Source: a virus
Length of the DNA stretch: 42,409 nucleotides
Virus genome (UHGV): UHGV-0357081
Strand: one strand, 5' to 3'
In this document: piece by piece, positions 2,464 to 37,676 of the stretch
Layout of the letters: every line of letters starts with the position of its first letter
How positions within the stretch are numbered: the first letter of the stretch is position 1
Translations under genes and position numbers: made by a program
The notes under the pieces: generated by a model
What the model was told of the DNA's origin: nothing
The model's database searches: none
The model's input: the letters and a program-made list of their open reading frames with translations, nothing else

Positions 2464-3261
2464 ATGAAATGTGTACTGAAATATCCAGGAGCAAAGAACC
2501 GCATTGCTGACTGGATATGCGGATATATACCACCGCATGAAGTGTACCTGGAGCCATACTTTGGAAGCGGGGCCGTGTTTTTTAACAAAACTCCGGCCAG
2601 AATCGAAACAGTGAATGACCTGGATGGGAATGTAGTCAACTATTTTAGAGTTATCCGGGAGAGGCCACAGGAGTTGATGACCCAGCTGGAGATGACGCCC
2701 TATAGTAGGGATGAATATTATGGTTCCCGTGAAAATTTAGATAAGGATACGGATATAGAAAAGGCAAGAAAGTTTGCGGTAAGGTGTTGGATGGGGTATG
2801 GGGCCAGTAACTCCTATTTCAGCGGATTCAGGAGTAGCCAACAAACCAGAAGCCCTTATACCACAAAAGAATGGAGAAATTTGCCGGAGAGATTATTGGC
2901 AGCTGGGGAACGTTTAAAGAATGCGCAGATTGAGAATCTGCCAGCAATAGAACTGATTAGACGGTATGATACGCCGGATGTATTTATGTATGTTGACCCT
3001 CCTTACTTACATGGGACACGGAAAAATTATCTTTACCGGTATGAGATGGAAGACGATGAACATATTGAACTGTTGAAACTGCTTGTGGAGCATCCGGGAA
3101 AGGTACTGCTATCTGGCTATGACAATGACCTGTATAACCAGATACTTATAGGATGGAGGAAGGTTAGCAAGAAGACACAGGCAGAGGCTGGGATACCCAG
3201 GGTTGAAACTTTGTGGATGAATTATGAGATAGGTCAGGTAGAGTTACCGTTGGGCCTGTAA
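2464..3261 (+). CDS. dam: DNA N6-adenine methyltransferase, Dam (D12 class) family
   Basis: N-terminal KYPGAKNRIADWI..YLEPYFGSGAVFF (AdoMet-binding motif) and catalytic DPPY motif (VDPPYLHG). Confidence 0.85.
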   Translation: MKCVLKYPGAKNRIADWICGYIPPHEVYLEPYFGSGAVFFNKTPARIETVNDLDGNVVNYFRVIRERPQELMTQLEMTPYSRDEYYGSRENLDKDTDIEKARKFAVRCWMGYGASNSYFSGFRSSQQTRSPYTTKEWRNLPERLLAAGERLKNAQIENLPAIELIRRYDTPDVFMYVDPPYLHGTRKNYLYRYEMEDDEHIELLKLLVEHPGKVLLSGYDNDLYNQILIGWRKVSKKTQAEAGIPRVETLWMNYEIGQVELPLGL

Positions 3262-3890: not shown

Positions 3891-3968
3891 GATTTAGGCA
3901 TCTGGGGATACATAGCAGACTGCAACCGGTAGGCCTGCTCCCCCAGTGTAAGCCCTATAGAATATAGG

Positions 3969-4223
3969 ATGTGTAAAGTGAAGAAAGGCGTATTGATTAT
4001 AGACCTTCCTGAGAATTGCAGAGATTGTCCATATTTTTCATACAACTGTAAACTGACCAACAAAAAATGCAATTGGTATAACGAAGATGGAAGACATGAG
4101 GATTGTCCATTAGTGTCCCTTCCGGAACCAATGGAGGTTTGCGGGAAATATACGCAGCCTGGGCCAGTACCGTCATATCGCATTGGTTGGAATGATTGTT
4201 TAAAGGCAATAACAAAAAATTAG
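3969..4223 (+). CDS. Cys-rich hypothetical protein
   Basis: 84-aa ORF with CRDCPYF..C..C...C pattern (zinc-ribbon-like). Confidence 0.4.
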   Translation: MCKVKKGVLIIDLPENCRDCPYFSYNCKLTNKKCNWYNEDGRHEDCPLVSLPEPMEVCGKYTQPGPVPSYRIGWNDCLKAITKN

Positions 4224-4254
4224 GATTTTCGGTATTACTGGAGAAAGGGATATT

Positions 4255-4599
4255 ATGAGACTGATTGATGCAGATAAGATTGATTTTAATGAAGTTTTTA
4301 AGGGGCAATCGGATTTTGCGAGAGATACACGGGAGGCAGCACAGTCGTTGATTGATGGACAGCCGGAGATTAGTAGATGGATTCCGGTGGAGGAGCGGCT
4401 GCCAGAACGTGAAGAATGGATAGGCATCAAAGGCAAGGAACATTATCTTCGCAGAATGGAAATTGCTGTAGACAGTGACACTATTGAATATTTTCTTGTT
4501 TTTTATGATGGATATAAATGGTTTGATAAATTTGGACGTACCTATGCGGGTATTAAAGCGTGGAAAATCCATGAGCCATTTATTCCACCTAAATGCTAA
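4255..4599 (+). CDS. DUF551-like phage protein
   Basis: W..PV.E.LP... then ...AWK...P..PP at the C-terminus, resembling the DUF551 phage domain. RBS GGAGAAAGGG upstream. Confidence 0.4.
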   Translation: MRLIDADKIDFNEVFKGQSDFARDTREAAQSLIDGQPEISRWIPVEERLPEREEWIGIKGKEHYLRRMEIAVDSDTIEYFLVFYDGYKWFDKFGRTYAGIKAWKIHEPFIPPKC

Positions 4600-4823
4600 T
4601 TTTTAATGGAGGTAATATGGTTCTGGAAGTATATGATAAAGAGACAAATAAAACAGTCGATGTGAAAAAAGACAGCTATTTTAAAGATTATGGTGTTGTG
4701 ATTGGACTGGATGGACATATGATGCTCACGCAGTATGGAGATATAGTTTGTAGTGTTGACGAGAGGTATTATGGAGTAAGGGTAGTAAGCCGCAATTTAG
4801 AATTTAACGGAGGTGTAAAGTAA
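4593..4823 (+). CDS. hypothetical protein
   Basis: 76-aa ORF with GGAGG RBS. Confidence 0.4.
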   Translation: MLIFNGGNMVLEVYDKETNKTVDVKKDSYFKDYGVVIGLDGHMMLTQYGDIVCSVDERYYGVRVVSRNLEFNGGVK

Positions 4824-5045: not shown

Positions 5046-5157
5046 AAACTGAGCGGTGGTCAACCGCCAAGATAAATCCACCGCTCCCGTAAATACGTCT
5101 GAGTATATTATATCTCACTCAGACGTGAAAATCAATACGAATGAGGAGGATATAATT

Positions 5158-6204
5158 ATGAGTACACAGACAATTAAAGCTGAAATAATCAACAATGTAC
5201 TGGTAGCAATGTCCTTATATATCATGGAGCAACAGACTCTTACCATTCTGCAAAATGTAATGCAGCAGGAATTGGTAAGAGTAAATATGGAGGAAATAAC
5301 TACTCTTCCGGCAGAAAGAAAAGATGATATAAGCCAGCGGAATCAGTACATAATACAATTGTTCCTGATTAAAAAACGCGATTTGGCAAAAGGAACTAAA
5401 CAAAACTATCTTAATGCCATACGAAGATTGCTGACAGAGATAAGCACAAAATCACTGGACCAGATGGATACCACTGATATTGATTGGTATTTATCGCGGT
5501 ATGAAATTAGAAATGTATCTGCCGGGGGAAAGAAAAACCAGCCTAGTACCTATAATAACGAGCGCAGATTTCTGTCAGCATTCTTCGCATGGATGCGCCT
5601 TGAAAAGCTTATTACAGATAATCCGGTAGAGTCTATACCAGCTAAAAAAGTACCCATTAAACCAATTGATTACTACAGCCCAGAAGAATCTGCAAGGTTA
5701 AGGGATGCGTGCAAAAATATCCGTGAGAGAGCCTTACTGGAAGTGCTTCGAAGTACTGGGGCCAGGATAGGAGAGATTGCGGAAATAACGCTTGACCAGA
5801 TAGATATGAGGAGTGGAGACATATGGATACAGGGAGAGAAAGGCGGAAGATACCGTACAATCTATCTGGATGATGATGCGCGGCATTATTATGGACTGTA
5901 TTTGGACAGCAGGAAAGATGATTGCCTGTATATGTTCCCACGCTCCAGAAAGCCGTATGGAAAAATGACCACTTGTGGATTCCGGGCAATATTGAAAACC
6001 ATAAAAAAGAGGGCCGGATTAACATGCCGGGTATATCCGCATAAGTCACGCAAGACGCTGGGAATGAATTTGAAAAACAGAGGGGTTGATATTGGGACCA
6101 TACAGGAGATTATGGGACATGCAGACCCGGGAGTGACGGCCCGGTATTATGCGCAGTCAAATCCCCGCACCCTTCGGTCGATAAGGGAAAGGGTTAATGT
6201 GTAA
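5158..6204 (+). CDS. tyrosine site-specific recombinase (XerC/XerD/phage-integrase family), second recombinase of the genome
   Basis: Start chosen at ATG 5158 after RBS GAGGAGGA. Catalytic-domain signatures are RSTGARIGEI (Arg), HKSRKT (His-x-x-Arg) and GHADPGVTARYYAQ (His and Tyr). Confidence 0.8.
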   Translation: MSTQTIKAEIINNVLVAMSLYIMEQQTLTILQNVMQQELVRVNMEEITTLPAERKDDISQRNQYIIQLFLIKKRDLAKGTKQNYLNAIRRLLTEISTKSLDQMDTTDIDWYLSRYEIRNVSAGGKKNQPSTYNNERRFLSAFFAWMRLEKLITDNPVESIPAKKVPIKPIDYYSPEESARLRDACKNIRERALLEVLRSTGARIGEIAEITLDQIDMRSGDIWIQGEKGGRYRTIYLDDDARHYYGLYLDSRKDDCLYMFPRSRKPYGKMTTCGFRAILKTIKKRAGLTCRVYPHKSRKTLGMNLKNRGVDIGTIQEIMGHADPGVTARYYAQSNPRTLRSIRERVNV

Positions 6205-7968: not shown

Positions 7969-9184
7969 TGTAATCGCTCCTTCCTTCTATGGCGTTCACT
8001 GGGATATCCTGGACAACAATCATACATATTATGACCTTTACGGTGGGCGCGGTTCCACAAAGTCCTCTTTCATATCCGTTGAAATCATACTGGGAATGAT
8101 GGATGACCCAGAGGCCAATGCGGTAGTGTTTCGTAAGTACGCCGTAACCATCGGAGAATCAGTATTTGAACAGATACAGTGGGCGATAGACGCATTAGGA
8201 GTAACAGATTTATGGGAATCCCGTACAAGCCCATACAGATTCGTTTATAAGCCAACAGGACAAAAGATAATATTCCGTGGACTTGATAAGGCAAAGAAAA
8301 CAAAGTCAATTAAAGCCAGTAAGGGATACTTTAAATATTTATGGTTCGAGGAACTGGACGAATTTGCAGGGCCGGAGGAAATACGAACTGTTGAGCAGTC
8401 AGTGTTACGTGGCGGCAGCAAGTTTGTTGTATTCAAATCCTTTAACCCACCCATCAGTCAAAGCAACTGGGCTAATCAGTATGTAAATACGCCGGATGAT
8501 AGCGCATACAGGCATAAAAGCGATTACCGTTCCGTACCGGCAGAGTGGTTAGGAGAAATGTTTATTGAGCGTGCCGAACATCTTAAATCTACCAATGAGC
8601 GGGCATATAACCATGAGTATTTAGGATTACCTGTTGGGCTTGGTACAAATATATTTGACATGCTGGATATACGGACCATTACAGATGATGAAATCAAGGG
8701 ATACCAAAGCATTTACCAAGGACAGGACTGGGGCTGGTTCCCGGACCCCAAAGCCTTTATCCGGGCCGCTTACATACCAAACAAAGAATTGGTTGTGCTG
8801 CTTGACGAAATGGGGGGCTGTAAAATCCGTAATAGTAAGATGGCGGAGGATATACAGACGGCTGGGTACGATGATTATACAATCTATTGCGGTGTGGATG
8901 AAGAAGAAAGCATTATAGACTTCCGTGACGCTGGTTTACCGGCCCGTAGAGCCATTGTAACACCGGGTAGTAGGAAATATACCTTTGAGTGGTTGCAGTG
9001 CCGTACAATCGTTATAGACCCGGCACGTACACCGCGAGCATACAAAGAAATCATAGAATATGAGCATGAGGTTGACAGCAACGGTGAGGTGATATCGGAT
9101 TACCCAGATGGAAACGACCACTGGATTGATGCACTCCGATATGCCACAAGTCCATTATCAATGAAAAGGGGGAACAGCGCATAA
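7925..9184 (+). CDS. terL: terminase large subunit (PBSX/XtmB-like)
   Basis: Walker A GGRGSTKS near the N-terminus; ~420 aa; acidic nuclease-region motifs at the C-terminus. TTG start with AGGAGGG RBS, overlapping the terS end. Confidence 0.85.
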   Translation: MSTTYQDQTTINLTDVIAPSFYGVHWDILDNNHTYYDLYGGRGSTKSSFISVEIILGMMDDPEANAVVFRKYAVTIGESVFEQIQWAIDALGVTDLWESRTSPYRFVYKPTGQKIIFRGLDKAKKTKSIKASKGYFKYLWFEELDEFAGPEEIRTVEQSVLRGGSKFVVFKSFNPPISQSNWANQYVNTPDDSAYRHKSDYRSVPAEWLGEMFIERAEHLKSTNERAYNHEYLGLPVGLGTNIFDMLDIRTITDDEIKGYQSIYQGQDWGWFPDPKAFIRAAYIPNKELVVLLDEMGGCKIRNSKMAEDIQTAGYDDYTIYCGVDEEESIIDFRDAGLPARRAIVTPGSRKYTFEWLQCRTIVIDPARTPRAYKEIIEYEHEVDSNGEVISDYPDGNDHWIDALRYATSPLSMKRGNSA

Positions 9185-17309: not shown

Positions 17310-17502
17310 GACCTCCCTCCTATAGCACATGTCCTTAAAAGAAACAGGTTCTAGCGCATAGCGTGAACAGCCTGGAGGTTGAAAAGCGGATGCAATTTCC
17401 GGCATGTGCGTTTTTGGACAAGTCAAGTCCTACAAAATGGCAACCGTTGGTGGACGGTTACACACCTACAAATAACCTAATAACGGAAAAGGAGAATCAT
17501 CA

Positions 17503-18126
17503 ATGAAAACCGAAGAATTAAAAGCACAGGGATTGACAGAGGAACAGATATCTTTTGTCATGGCTGAAAATGGGAAAGACCTCAAAAAGTTGCAGAAAGA
17601 AAACGACAATCTGAGCGCGGACCGGGATACCTGGAAAGAAAAAGCAGAAGCAGCAGAAGCAACGCTGAAAGGCTTTGAAGGGGTTGACCTGGAGACGATG
17701 CAGAGGGAAATATCTGACTGGAAACAGAAAGCTACGGAAGCCGAGAAAAAAGCCCAGGAGCAGCTTTACGCGCGTGACTTTTCGGACGCTCTGAAAACGG
17801 AATTTGAGGGTATTAAGTTTTCCAGCGAAGCGGCTAAACGTGCAATTATGGCAGAAGTAAAAGAGGCCGGTTTAAAACTGAAAGATGGTAAAATTCTGGG
17901 GCTGAATGACCTTTTGTCTCAAATGAAAGAAAAAGATGCTTCGGCTTTTGTTGATGATGCACAGCAGCAGGTACAGCAGAACATGGCGAGGTTTACCGCA
18001 CCAGTAGGTAAGCAGAATACGCCAGGAACTATGACACGAAAGGATATTGAAGCGATTAAAGACCCGTCTGAGCGCCAGTCTGCAATCGCCAGTAACCTAC
18101 ATTTATTCGGTAAAGGAGAACAGTAA
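17503..18126 (+). CDS. scaffolding protein
   Basis: 207-aa highly charged helical A/E/K-rich protein immediately upstream of the major capsid gene. RBS AAAGGAGAA. Confidence 0.55.
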   Translation: MKTEELKAQGLTEEQISFVMAENGKDLKKLQKENDNLSADRDTWKEKAEAAEATLKGFEGVDLETMQREISDWKQKATEAEKKAQEQLYARDFSDALKTEFEGIKFSSEAAKRAIMAEVKEAGLKLKDGKILGLNDLLSQMKEKDASAFVDDAQQQVQQNMARFTAPVGKQNTPGTMTRKDIEAIKDPSERQSAIASNLHLFGKGEQ

Positions 18127-32784: not shown

Positions 32785-33855
32785 TCACATGATGAACTTT
32801 TCAAAGTGTTTATTGATTTTTTTATTTTGCCGGACAGATTCCAGGTCAATCACATTCCTGTATACAGTTTTCATGATATTGTCACTGGCCCATCCTCCTC
32901 GCTGCAATATATATTGGTCTGGTACACCTATGGCGTGCATAATGGATGCAGCATAATGCCGGAGGTCGTGAAAGCGGAAATGCGGTACATCAATCTTTTT
33001 AAGCACCCGCCCAAATCTATGTGTGATATAATCCGGGTTCATGTCAACTAATTTTCCTTTCTTTCCAGATATCCGGTCAATTACAAATGCCGGCATTTCT
33101 ACGTCCCGTGTGCTGTCATCCGTCTTTGGCTGTTTGATATACCATTGATTGTCTGGCCCCTTAACCATATTGTCTCTTACATGGATAATACGACCCTCTA
33201 TATTTTTATCCGTAAGGGCGCTTATCTCTCCACGTCTGAGTGGCCCAAACGCAGCCAGTAACACGGCTATCTCTAAATCTGTACCTTTGATGGCGTCTAA
33301 CAACTTTTTGATATCATTGTCATTGGGGCAGTACAAATCTGGGCGCTTTTTCTGCGGAAGCTTTACCTTTAAGGTTAAATCCGGCGCAAACATTTCCAAG
33401 GATGCGGATAACAGGCCATAGGCATTTCTAACTGTCTTTGGAGACAGTTGTTTCCCTGCCAAATCACTTACCCATATCTGTACAGATGGATTAGATAGCT
33501 CTGAGAGCCGTTTACGCCCAAATACGCAGTCAAAATACTGCCTTTGCATACCAACATACCCTCTAAGCGTAGAAGGGCTTAAAACGCCTTTTTTAACGTT
33601 TAAATAACGTTCAATAGCTTGGCTCACTGTTATATCTTCGTCCTCGTCCTCTTCCGGTACATTGTATTGCTCTATGGGCTTATCCTTCATATCTAATTTC
33701 CATCTAGCAGCCATTTCTTGTGCGATTTTACGTGATGGAGCAACAAAACTTTTGTAATGTCGTTTACCTTTTTCATCCGTATATAAGTATAATTGTACAC
33801 GGATATTTTTGGATGGCAGTTCTCCTTTTTTCTTTTTCGGGGCTTTCTTTGTCAT
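32785..33855 (-). CDS. int: phage integrase (tyrosine recombinase)
   Basis: Start at ATG 33855 (MTKKAPKKKK) after GAAGGAGGA. Arm-binding-like N-terminus, then a catalytic domain with ...FHDLRHYAASIMHAIGVP...LQRGGWASDNIMKTVYRNV (His and Tyr). Located between the lysin and the repressor module. Confidence 0.9.
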   Translation of the reverse strand: MTKKAPKKKKGELPSKNIRVQLYLYTDEKGKRHYKSFVAPSRKIAQEMAARWKLDMKDKPIEQYNVPEEDEDEDITVSQAIERYLNVKKGVLSPSTLRGYVGMQRQYFDCVFGRKRLSELSNPSVQIWVSDLAGKQLSPKTVRNAYGLLSASLEMFAPDLTLKVKLPQKKRPDLYCPNDNDIKKLLDAIKGTDLEIAVLLAAFGPLRRGEISALTDKNIEGRIIHVRDNMVKGPDNQWYIKQPKTDDSTRDVEMPAFVIDRISGKKGKLVDMNPDYITHRFGRVLKKIDVPHFRFHDLRHYAASIMHAIGVPDQYILQRGGWASDNIMKTVYRNVIDLESVRQNKKINKHFEKFIM

Positions 33856-33919
33856 TTCTCTTTCCTCCTTCAATTGATTTCCCTAAAATGGGTATAAAAA
33901 ATACAGCTCCGCAAATATC

Positions 33920-35487: not shown

Positions 35488-35560
35488 AGAAAAAATTCTG
35501 CAAAAAAAGCTTGACAATTAGAAAGAGTTCTGTATAATAGAGATATAGATACAGAAAACT
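35488..35560 (+). promoter_or_regulatory. lysogeny-switch region: P(cro) with extended -10 and CAGAA/TTCTG operator-like half-sites
   Basis: TTGACA at 35511-35516, 16-nt spacer, TG-TATAAT at 35531-35538. Palindrome CAGAAAAAATTCTG at 35488-35501 and TTCTG...CAGAA flanking the -10. Confidence 0.55.
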
Positions 35561-35885: not shown

Positions 35886-36311
35886 ATGAAAGCTGCATGG
35901 AATATTAATGGAATTTTTAAAGCAGATGCCGAAAAAGTTTCGGATGAATTATCAGCAATTAAGTGTACACCATCCAATGTAGTAGAACATGCCAGGAATC
36001 CAAAAACAGAATTACATAAATGTTTTGAATGGAATGATTCTATAGCAGGGGAAAAATACAGAGAACATCAGGCACAACAAGTAATACGTAATCTTGTAAT
36101 CATTAAAGAAGAAACCGAAGAAAAAACACCCATAAGGTTATTTTACAATACCGGAGATAGGACAGGAGAATATAAGCCCGTACAACTGGTAATGAGGAAA
36201 GAAGATGAATATAAGAATTTGTTAAATAAAGCACAGGAAGAATTAAGGGCATTCAAAAAGAAATATAGCTATTTGACTGAGTTAGAAGAAATTCTTTCCT
36301 TAATTAGCTAA
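35886..36311 (+). CDS. hypothetical early protein
   Basis: RBS GGAGGTGAGGTC-ATG. 141 aa. Confidence 0.45.
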   Translation: MKAAWNINGIFKADAEKVSDELSAIKCTPSNVVEHARNPKTELHKCFEWNDSIAGEKYREHQAQQVIRNLVIIKEETEEKTPIRLFYNTGDRTGEYKPVQLVMRKEDEYKNLLNKAQEELRAFKKKYSYLTELEEILSLIS

Positions 36312-36325
36312 TAGTAATAATTGGC

Positions 36326-36585
36326 CTGCTGAATTGACAATATATTGTTTTGTCATCAGCAGCAAAAGAAAATACAGAACATTGCAGAATAAAACATAAG
36401 ATAACAATATATTGCCAATTCAGCAGACCAACAAGCATTATAATTTTTCTGACCGTATACATATTGGAATTAACCAATAAAAAATTAGAACGATGCAATA
36501 CAGCAAAATAAATAACATCTCAGAATATCAAATTACAATACAGAATATTAAATATTGGATTTAATTCCAATATTTATGCGGTCAG
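36326..36585. repeat. nested inverted-repeat element (two long dyads, CAGAAT/AATACAG motifs)
   Basis: IR1 has 24-bp arms at 36326-36349 and 36403-36426 with one mismatch and a 53-bp spacer. IR2 has 25-bp arms at 36449-36473 and 36561-36585 with two mismatches and an 87-bp spacer. AATACAG occurs three times and CAGAAT three times. Confidence 0.7.
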
Positions 36586-36599
36586 ATATAGGAGGAGAC

Positions 36600-37277
36600 A
36601 TGAACAAAAAGGAAGAAAGTATTATAACCTTAGAGCCTATTAAAAAGTGCAAAGTTAAGATAGCTTTAGTAGGAGATTCTGACTTGATTTTAAACAAGAA
36701 ATCAAGGTCATATGAAGAATTGGAAATATTTAAGCAATCACATCCGAAGGGAACAAAAATTCCTAAGGAGTTGCAGCAACCTTATAACCTTTTTGAGAAA
36801 TTAATCACTTCGATTACATGGGAAAATAAAATTCCGGTGTATGATGATTATTCCATGTACACAAAAGAAATGTGGGAAGAATTAATTTATTCAAACCGTC
36901 CGTGTATTTTATCAAAAGCATTTAAGGATTCTTTTATGGAAGCGTTTATTTCTTTAGGCTATAAAGAAGCCACAAGTAGGAATGGTACAGACTTTAAACG
37001 TTCTGTCAATATTTCCAATTGGAAGAATCCAGTGGATATTACATCAGCTACATTCAGTCAGCATTTGACTCCAAACACAGGAATCACAAAAACCAATGTT
37101 ATTGCTCAATATAATGTTTTTTCTGGATGGAAATGTGAAATTGAAATATCCCACATTGATTATATATTCGCAACAGATACAGTACTTGAAATTATAAACA
37201 ATGCTGGTGAGTTTATTGGAATAGGAACACGCAGAGCAGAGGGATTTGGCAGATATCATGTTGAATCAATAAATTAA
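36600..37277 (+). CDS. hypothetical protein with C-terminal Cas6/RAMP-type glycine-rich loop
   Basis: ATG 36600 after GGAGGAG. C-terminal GIGTRRAEGFG fits the GhGxxxxxGhG motif of Cas6/RAMP endoribonucleases and lies near the C-terminus as in Cas6. HPKGTK lies in the N-terminal third. Confidence 0.3.
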   Translation: MNKKEESIITLEPIKKCKVKIALVGDSDLILNKKSRSYEELEIFKQSHPKGTKIPKELQQPYNLFEKLITSITWENKIPVYDDYSMYTKEMWEELIYSNRPCILSKAFKDSFMEAFISLGYKEATSRNGTDFKRSVNISNWKNPVDITSATFSQHLTPNTGITKTNVIAQYNVFSGWKCEIEISHIDYIFATDTVLEIINNAGEFIGIGTRRAEGFGRYHVESIN

Positions 37278-37397
37278 ATGCCCCGGCGGTGCTACGAACA
37301 CCAACCGGAGCCGTAACCACATTACCACAATTAATGCGGATACAGGAATATTTTACCATTTTCTCCTGTATTACGCAAGCACAGGAGGAAAATATTT

Positions 37398-37676
37398 ATG
37401 AACATTGAAAACCAGAAGGACAAGCAAACATGGGAAGGGCTGGAACAGTATTTTGCTGTAGAGGTAATAGAGCAAGCCAAGAAAAGCAGTAACCGATGGT
37501 TTCATGCGTGGGTTATCACTTTTGTTATTGGATTAGCTGCATTTATAGGCACTAATGCTTATTGGATACACATATTCCAGTCTTATGATTATATAACCCA
37601 GGATGGCACCGGACTGAACAACATCAACACAGGAACACAAGGAGATTTAGAGAATGGGACAGAAAGCCAGGATTAA
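37398..37676 (+). CDS. small membrane protein
   Basis: One TM helix (WVITFVIGLAAFIGTNAYWIHIF). RBS AGGAGGAAAATATTT-ATG. Confidence 0.4.
   Translation: MNIENQKDKQTWEGLEQYFAVEVIEQAKKSSNRWFHAWVITFVIGLAAFIGTNAYWIHIFQSYDYITQDGTGLNNINTGTQGDLENGTESQD

Follow-up and report, generated by a model that had tools for sequence, protein, structure and literature searches.

The virus genome UHGV-0357081, analysed here as one strand of 42,409 nucleotides (nt; hereafter the window), carries a gene for a small RAMP protein directly downstream of two long inverted repeats. The question raised by this locus is whether the protein is a solitary Cas6-type RNase acting on its own hairpin RNAs, as an earlier sequence-only reading had suggested among other options, or belongs to a different RNA-guided system. 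The answer reached, to which a probability of roughly 80% is assigned, is that positions 35886-37277 represent a VIPR-type RNA-guided recognition module of a temperate phage of gut Lachnospiraceae, with an AYA/NN rather than a GGY/NN repeat and with stem-closed guide cassettes. Viral Interference Programmable Repeat (VIPR) is a phage-encoded RNA-guided system first described in 2026, in which the Vipr protein is a single-RRM RAMP and the guide RNAs (vrRNAs) consist of 9-16 tandem YNNGG units, in which a hypervariable NN separates one conserved GGY from the next, and of a structured tail at the 3' end (10.64898/2026.04.26.720920; 10.64898/2026.04.26.720927). Each Vipr protomer binds one unit and covers its GGY, leaving the NN bases to pair with DNA at two of every three target positions; in nature the guides are aimed mostly at coding sequences of rival phages, where the unread third base falls on the wobble position (10.64898/2026.04.26.720920; 10.64898/2026.04.26.720927). 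Expressed vrRNAs are trimmed to ~100 nt and purify together with Vipr, and this ribonucleoprotein binds dsDNA and silences transcription. The system usually includes one accessory gene (vap), and seven types are distinguished, some with the variant repeats NNNGG, YNNNG, and NNNNG (10.64898/2026.04.26.720920; 10.64898/2026.04.26.720927). The type II systems of Escherichia phage SUSP1 and of a P. fulva prophage, with the structure PDB 36pp, were taken for comparison.

The vipr-like open reading frame (ORF) at 36600-37277 on the plus strand is real and open, is preceded by an AGGAGG ribosome-binding site, and encodes 225 amino acids (aa), not the 226 previously counted; the protein ends in ...NAGEFIGIGTRRAEGFGRYHVESIN (also written GIGTRRAEGFGRYHVESIN). 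In 36 homologues (48-64% identity), G203, G207, G209, and G217 are invariant and R212 is nearly so. The GhGxxxxxGhG segment singled out in the sequence-only reading is therefore a conserved RAMP G-loop, and the concern that it might vary among homologues fell away. Within HPKGTK (residues 48-53), H48, K50, and G51 are invariant or nearly so in the same homologues, the nearly invariant His48 lying in QSHPKG. A single-sequence search of PDB returned one weak match, the SUSP1 Vipr protein (36pp_D, E 0.1). When a profile of the 36 homologues was searched against 177,635 PDB sequences, SUSP1 Vipr was the sole match, with an E-value of 2.2e-7 across 114 positions that take in both thumb and G-loop. 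An hhalign comparison with the full SUSP1 Vipr, the sequence of which was recovered from the phage genome, gave 93.8% probability and an E-value of 1.7e-7 over 114 C-terminal columns. Among 1.84 billion representative proteins, the profile found 631 relatives at E <=1e-3 and 61 at <=1e-10; among the matches listed, those with a library-wide E-value of ~1e-7 included proteins that themselves match SUSP1 Vipr at 1e-36. Two long proteins that seemed to contain 7-8 Vipr-like stretches are Ig-like surface proteins and were rejected as false positives. Protein P0338 (1063 aa) combines an N-terminal ResIII/DEAD helicase with a C-terminal Vipr-like domain (932-1062, E 5.7e-8) and looks like a helicase-Vipr fusion. 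Pfam holds no family for the vipr-like protein or for the 141-aa protein encoded upstream, PHROGs placed the former only in a family of unknown function, and no isolated phage in the GenBank phage collection encodes a relative of it. Nothing exceeded the thresholds of NCBIfam and PADLOC, where the matches were sub-threshold G-loop hits, among them hits to Csx10 and Cas5 models (E 0.001-0.01). Residues 25-28, GDSD (36672-36683), stand right after beta-strand 1, with G25 invariant and D28 nearly so; we take the catalytic aspartate of Csm3/Cmr4 to lie at roughly this position, and an acidic residue is absent at the matching position of SUSP1 Vipr.

The AlphaFold (AF2) model of the protein is confident (pLDDT 92.2) and predicts one RRM core, a beta-hairpin thumb (residues 149-175, assigned from the secondary structure of the model and from alignment alone), a helical insertion, and a G-loop at 203-217. 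A duplicated RRM fold, which had been expected of a Cas6, was looked for in this model, and a single core was found in place of the two tandem RRM (ferredoxin-like) domains of Cas6. In its single RRM, G-loop, and thumb, with no second RRM, the predicted fold has the features of a Vipr. The best solved structures in Foldseek were Cas7-type backbone subunits, namely Csm3, Cmr4, and type VII Cas7 (E 8.8e-7 to 1e-4, template modelling (TM) score about 0.5), with 6xn3_F at the top (E 8.8e-7, TM 0.53/0.57). No Cas6 was present among the solved-structure matches listed, which were subunits of Csm, Cmr, and type VII effector complexes. Among predicted viral structures, the model matched an uncharacterised gut-virome protein (TM 0.80) and a siphovirus "Cas system-associated RAMP superfamily protein". 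The C-terminal glycine-rich loop is shared with Cas6 but is common to all RAMPs and does not discriminate. Tandem Repeats Finder detected no CRISPR-like array across the window, in agreement with the earlier reading, and called no repeats in the module region; neither a CRISPR array nor Cas10, Cas5, or Cas11 partners occur in the locus, and the stems are unique sequences, not one repeated unit as in the arrays that accompany Cas6. The 141-aa protein had a sub-threshold match to a Cas10 model (E 0.004; cut-off 170 bits). Judged by profile and model, the vipr-like protein is a Cas7-like RAMP and a phage relative of Vipr, not a Cas6 RNase; of the Cas6/RAMP assignment proposed before, the RAMP part stands, whereas the single RRM, the Cas7-type structures, and the sequence relationship to SUSP1 Vipr speak against Cas6. 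The protein shares with Csm3/Cmr4 of type III and with type VII effectors the fold class, the G-loop, the thumb, and presumably the binding of guide RNA at fixed periodicity as a helical filament. It differs from the Csm3/Cmr4 systems in the bare locus, in a 5-nt rather than a 6-nt periodicity, in a discontinuous rather than a contiguous guide, and in giving no sequence-level match to these proteins.

Both inverted repeats upstream of the gene (IR1 and IR2) are real, with arms longer than the 24 and 25 bp previously noticed: 36 nt with 86% complementarity in IR1 and 26 nt with 92% in IR2 (Table 1). The upstream region does fold, as had been anticipated; the 288-nt spacer lies far below dinucleotide shuffles on either strand (z -8.9 and -9.35). 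The short direct motifs AATACAG and CAGAAT recur, but they are really pieces of a 5-nt periodicity. With a detector requiring >=7 in-phase units and >=17/21 matches to ACA, exactly two tracts were found in the 42-kb window when both strands were scanned, 36364-36413 and 36510-36549, one inside each inverted repeat, and 50 shuffles of the window gave none at this threshold. Motif-free autocorrelation of the two loops had peaks at lags 5, 10, and 15 (z 2.7, 2.2, and 2.7), and the same lags peaked in the accessory-vipr spacers of diverse loci (z 3-7.6). The units of cassette 1 read GCAGC AAAAG AAAAT ACAGA ACATT GCAGA ATAAA ACATA AGATA ACAAT ATATT, and those of cassette 2 read ACGAT GCAAT ACAGC AAAAT AAATA ACATC TCAGA ATATC AAATT ACAAT ACAGA ATATT AAATA. 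Each cassette of the window comprises ~9-13 A-Y-A-N-N units and a stem of 26-36 bp.

The ACANN periodicity extends beyond the window, being present on the vipr strand in the regions upstream of vipr at 80 related viral loci, with each tract bracketed by an inverted repeat. In the 80 loci and the window together, 293 distinct tracts were counted. Every one is on the vipr strand, their median length is 9 units, and the longest has 17; no minus-strand tract was found in 1.37 Mb of extended related loci. The position frequencies over these tracts are A.85, C.64/T.21, and A.94, followed by two near-uniform positions, the values at the three selected positions being inflated because the detector looks for ACA. 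Tandem pentanucleotides of the kind described for VIPR, in 9-16 units with three conserved and two hypervariable positions, are thus present. No GGY or GG period-5 tract was found on either strand of the window. As a positive control, the scan recovered GGYNN tracts on the vipr strand of the SUSP1 locus, one upstream and three downstream (the last two merged by the scan), as published. The hairpins go with the protein, as the sequence-only reading had supposed, and the tracts of the related phage loci are usually stem-closed; the further idea in that reading of CRISPR-repeat-like cleavage substrates gave way to stems closing pentanucleotide loops that behave as programmable guides.

An ungapped flanking inverted repeat (median arm about 27 nt) was found for 244 cassettes, which form 54 sequence clusters; the clusters differ in stem sequence, so pairing has been retained and sequence has not. 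Stem mismatches were counted on one representative per cluster, with a detector that penalises G.T and A.C equally. On the vipr-sense strand, G.T mismatches outnumbered A.C by 116 to 24 (binomial p 1e-15), with 43 clusters favouring G.T and 1 favouring A.C. This excess points to selection on a vipr-sense RNA helix, and a DNA site would not yield such asymmetry. In the window and five close relatives (Vipr 97-100% identical), the stem arms are conserved, the loops vary in sequence and length, and 94.8% of stem cells pair. Five stem pairs have changed on both sides, compared with <=1 when the partners were slid, and 3/500 shuffles reached five. Folding energies did not distinguish the two strands of the window, both of which fold well. 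The stem mismatches and the co-orientation of the tracts with vipr point to a vipr-sense guide RNA, as far as sequence comparison can tell. A motif ACCG...CGGU near the stem base (36453-36456 / 36578-36581) is common to many otherwise unrelated cassettes in loci L002-L021, often with a U.G wobble and, in one group, with a conserved G.G mismatch; the motif might serve in recognition or processing. In L016 (IMGVR_UViG_3300032038_000066), period-5 tracts at 2507-3000 read T-R-T-T-N on the vipr strand, the reverse of all other tracts. They represent either an inverted array or a Vipr reading a U-rich unit, and bear on the choice of the RNA strand.

The guides were compared with the genomes of related phages. 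In total, 230 non-redundant guides (each tract plus or minus 4 units) were scored against 1.66 Mb of related phage DNA (both strands counted, arrays masked) by ungapped local matching, with +1 per matching base and -2 per mismatch. With one target base skipped and NN at unit positions 4-5, 11 guides scored >=16, 7 scored >=18, and 5 scored >=20, the best matching at 22/22 bases. With shuffled unit order, none reached 16 (maximum 15). Without a skip, 1 guide scored >=16 and none >=18 or >=20, and with two bases skipped none reached 16. The four shifted registers at skip 1 gave 10-14 guides at >=16, 0-5 at >=18, and 0 at >=20. Skip-3 scores, which residual similarity between arrays inflates, were set aside. 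Of the 11 best matches, 10 fall within long ORFs, in frame and on the coding strand, so that codon position 3 is the base skipped; ~1/6 would be expected by chance. Two matches found with 9 units extended into the unused units by 7/8 and 6/6 bases, for totals of 24/26 and 23/24. The one-nucleotide-skip, wobble-aligned reading of VIPR was thus found at the level of the family, and the code with NN at unit positions 4-5 holds in this clade.

The recurrent targets include an ATPase-like gene and a RecT-like gene. One guide matches rival alleles of the ATPase-like gene at 17/18 bases and the allele of its own phage at 11/18, a difference that comes partly from serine codon family switches. Guides of different phages fit different alleles of the same site (PIWIDDSESID and LPIFVDNSESVN). 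Such allele-specific guides suggest an arms race at the level of alleles. The guides of several phages were observed to converge on a short conserved peptide motif of the ATPase-like early gene (IFVDNSESVN or IWIDDSESID) and on the RecT-like gene, the converging target sites being located in L032 at 236-1375, in L124/L145 at about 8030-8250, and in L030 at 3940-4773.

A homologue of the 141-aa accessory protein is encoded upstream on the same strand in 79/80 loci, the exception having almost no upstream sequence, whereas other neighbours (cI-like, cro-like, and a 92-aa membrane protein) are common to just 3-5 loci. The conserved unit is therefore the accessory gene, the cassette array, and vipr. 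The minimal VIPR locus, which is phage-borne and has a vap gene and no array, has its counterpart here. Like type II VIPR, the module is free of cas genes and combines a small RAMP, related to that of type II by sequence profile and built of one RRM plus G-loop and thumb, with a small accessory gene predicted to bind DNA and with flanking non-coding tracts of 9-17 pentanucleotide units on the vipr strand; in both, the guides match coding sequences of rival phages with one base skipped at the wobble position. Unlike in type II VIPR, the conserved triplet is A-Y-A instead of G-G-Y, and the 5' and 3' flanks of each tract pair into a closing stem of 25-36 bp, where type II has a 3' pseudoknot tail. 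Most cassettes stand upstream of vipr and downstream of the accessory gene, the product of which has no homology to SUSP1 vap1. In addition, all in-frame targets found here are coding-sense, while SUSP1 has targets on both strands. The module therefore departs from published VIPR in its triplet, its stem-closed cassettes, and its accessory protein. Its clade, to which the NR proteins NC548_57375 and IKN54_02370 from Lachnospiraceae MAGs belong, may be among the seven published types. The earlier suggestion of an undescribed system holds for its non-CRISPR character and lapses as to novelty, VIPR having been reported in two 2026 preprints. The stronger proposal, that the clade is a VIPR type with an undescribed code, having an A-Y-A handle, stem-closed cassettes probably cut by a host double-strand RNase, and coding-sense targets in rival genes only, is tentative, its chances being put at slightly below even.

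Under the VIPR-type interpretation, the cassettes would be transcribed in the vipr sense within an early operon, and the long stems would single them out to be cut free, plausibly by RNase III or another host double-strand RNase. Vipr protomers, if they act as their SUSP1 homologue does, would then polymerise along the loop, one per 5-nt unit, holding A-Y-A and exposing the two variable bases. The exposed dinucleotides would read the target as NNxNNx..., skipping every third base, which the family-level matches support. The presumed targets are coding sequences of competing related phages, and since the skipped base is at the wobble position, synonymous escape mutations there would not help the target. 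Binding would be expected to silence transcription, as was shown experimentally for the SUSP1 VIPR (10.64898/2026.04.26.720920; 10.64898/2026.04.26.720927).

Several points weigh against assigning the locus to VIPR. The alignment to SUSP1 Vipr covers the C-terminal half alone, the N-terminal half being unaligned. The A-Y-A triplet is neither GGY nor one of the NNNGG, YNNNG, and NNNNG variants of the discovery paper. The residues H17, D177, W178, and R138, which read the guanines in SUSP1 Vipr (10.64898/2026.04.26.720927), correspond here to N32, T210, R211, and Y171 (the H17-N32 pairing from a by-eye N-terminal alignment). This replacement fits a changed handle, and R179 of SUSP1, which contacts Y3, is kept as R212. 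The tracts of the window are more degenerate than those of many relatives, and in the window alone the two mismatches of IR1 are A.C on the plus strand, favouring the opposite strand, while IR2 has a U.G. The two guides of the window gave a best score of 12 in the local set of related phages, which equals the median and is at background level. Five exact-pattern scans of IMG/VR likewise returned no target for them, only nothing or chance-level extensions, although a target with a mismatch in each seed would escape such scans. Finally, we infer expression, processing, ribonucleoprotein formation, and the targeting of DNA rather than RNA.

Among the scans of IMG/VR, the exact 12-unit pattern of guide 2 had no match. 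Two 8-unit seeds of guide 2 had 34 and 28 matches with chance extensions and were rejected, the best (22/24) falling in a capsid-like ORF but not in its frame. For guide 1, the 9-unit seed had 2 matches and the 8-unit seed 75, with extension at chance level; one 9-unit match reached 23/26 NN on extension, but it was out of frame in a methyltransferase gene and was discarded.

The alternative closest to the preferred interpretation keeps the same module and takes the opposite strand as the functional RNA, with U-R-U-N-N units near the YNNNG variant, which might pair with mRNA instead of DNA. In the reverse complement N-N-U-R-U, position 2 would still be a purine, mostly G, and position 3 a pyrimidine, as in GGY, and R212 aligns with the residue of SUSP1 that contacts Y3; yet the reverse complement of a random triplet fits xGY about 1 time in 8, which makes the resemblance weak evidence. 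All 10 in-frame targets carry the guide-sense sequence on the coding strand, so that an antisense RNA would be complementary to the mRNA. The IR1 mismatches of the window become G.U on the minus strand, which folds slightly better, and the L016 tract has the reverse orientation. Across the clade, however, minus-strand stems would bear 116 A.C against 24 G.U mismatches (43 clusters against 1), 293/293 tracts are co-oriented with vipr between same-strand genes, and the repeats of SUSP1, the RNAs of which have been sequenced, are on the vipr strand (10.64898/2026.04.26.720920; 10.64898/2026.04.26.720927). An opposite-strand RNA is accordingly considered unlikely, at odds of somewhat better than one in ten.

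A solitary endoribonuclease of Cas6 type, cutting the hairpin RNAs encoded upstream of it and having no guide function, would account for the membership in the RAMP superfamily, the C-terminal-proximal G-loop, the nearly invariant His48, which might correspond to the catalytic histidine by which Cas6 cleaves RNA independently of metal, the association with long hairpin-forming RNA directly upstream, and a weak sub-threshold match to a Cas6 model (E 0.014). Cas6, however, has two RRMs and cleaves CRISPR repeats, while here there is one RRM, the best structures are Cas7-type filament subunits, the sole sequence relative with a structure is Vipr, and the stems round the guide tracts are unique. 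Hypervariable dinucleotides matching genes of rival phages by a skip-one rule would also be unexpected of a pure processing substrate. A Cas6-like role is therefore regarded as improbable, even though Vipr could still take part in RNA processing. Least probable, with only a slight chance, is an element acting as DNA, such as a replication origin, an iteron, or an operator array bound by a winged-helix protein, in which the inverted repeats would be protein-binding or cruciform sites. The spacer is indeed AT-rich, with inverted repeats and short repeated motifs, it adjoins the lysogeny switch and recombination genes, and the neighbouring conserved gene resembles a winged-helix DNA binder. A DNA site, though, gives no reason for a strand-biased excess of G.T over A.C mismatches; iterons are conserved as whole units, whereas 2/5 positions here are near-random; the variable dinucleotides match coding sequences elsewhere with codon phasing; and the adjacent protein is homologous to an RNA-binding RAMP.

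If the locus is a VIPR-type module, the logic of this system, so far studied experimentally in a few proteobacterial and heterologously expressed systems (10.64898/2026.04.26.720920; 10.64898/2026.04.26.720927), is now seen in temperate phages of human-gut Lachnospiraceae, with another triplet, another guide architecture, and an unrelated accessory protein. Sequence alone, independently of the original work, sufficed to recover the skip-one, wobble-aligned code, and the guides point to conserved motifs in early genes of rivals, including ATPase-like and RecT-like proteins. Should the A-Y-A handle prove true, the clade would offer an orthogonal programmable DNA-recognition module and a natural experiment on the co-evolution of RAMP proteins with RNA handles, and phage-phage conflict networks in gut viromes could be read directly from the guides. 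An undescribed code would further imply that VIPR can evolve new interfaces between protein and handle, and with them orthogonal systems, and that its types differ in how strands are chosen or guides acquired.

The features of the module are listed in Table 1.

Table 1. Positions of the VIPR-type module, its parts, and the upstream promoter-like site in the window
Feature	Position	Strand	Remark
Temperate-phage VIPR-type module, whole	35886-37277	+	Accessory gene, two guide cassettes, and vipr gene
Promoter-like site, TTGACA, 16 nt, TATAAT	35511-35538	+	Sigma-70-like; upstream of cro-like gene; 12/12 consensus matches
Conserved 141-aa accessory gene, candidate vap	35886-36311	+	Winged-helix-like core
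Guide cassettes 1 and 2, full spans	36321-36431 and 36448-36586	+	Stem plus tract
Guide cassette 1, 5' stem arm (IR1)	36321-36356	+	Compensatory changes among close relatives
Guide cassette 1, tract of 11 five-base units	36359-36413	+	Last units overlap 3' arm
Guide cassette 1, 3' stem arm (IR1)	36396-36431	+	Compensatory changes among close relatives
Guide cassette 2, 5' stem arm (IR2)	36448-36473	+	Holds ACCG base motif common to many cassettes
Guide cassette 2, tract of 13 five-base units	36490-36554	+	Period-5 scan
Guide cassette 2, 3' stem arm (IR2)	36561-36586	+	Ends just 5' of vipr ribosome-binding site
vipr-like gene, predicted 225-aa single-RRM Cas7-like RAMP	36600-37277	+	Profile, hhalign, AF2, Foldseek
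Thumb codons, residues 149-175, predicted beta-hairpin	37044-37124	+	Secondary structure of the model and alignments; counterpart of the SUSP1 thumb region with R138 (Y171 here)
G-loop codons, G203-G217, GEFIGIGTRRAEGFG	37206-37250	+	Invariant glycines; aligns with SUSP1 G-loop GVGDWRP-RFG

The minus strand of the window encodes an integrase (32785-33873), an ImmA-like protease, and a cI-like repressor, and the plus strand continues with a cro-like gene, the module, and, further downstream, Gam-like and exonuclease genes. These genes identify the surroundings as the early region of a temperate phage. The promoter-like site is the probable early promoter of the operon bearing the module, judging from the consensus match and presuming co-transcription. 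In the set of species-representative genomes, one locus was matched at 98% identity, on a 44-kb contig binned to an uncultured Dorea sp.; this is the nearest genome match of the phage, the host of which is taken to be a member of the gut Lachnospiraceae. The 42-kb genome contains two integrase-family ORFs, 5056-6204 (+) and 32785-33873 (-) (PHROG 1, E 3e-48 and 7e-51, respectively).

Searches of Rfam at gathering thresholds gave no match in the module region, and no hammerhead ribozymes were found in the window or in 7 related loci. Two Rfam matches above the gathering score were obtained elsewhere in the window, a RAGATH-21 RNA at 17324-17410 (+) (83.5 bits, E 1.3e-14) and, directly 3' of it, a GP20-b cis-regulatory RNA at 17416-17479 (+) (40.9 bits). 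The pair lies just 5' of the ORF 17503-18126, in an apparent structural module. The spacer 3' of vipr, 37283-37395 (+), is also structured (z -4). It contains a GC-rich hairpin, CCGGCGGUG...CACCAACCGG, after the vipr stop codon, the loop of which differs in one close relative. Further on, the gene for a 92-aa membrane protein at 37398-37676 would have its ribosome-binding site locked within a second hairpin, UCUCCUGU...ACAGGAGG.

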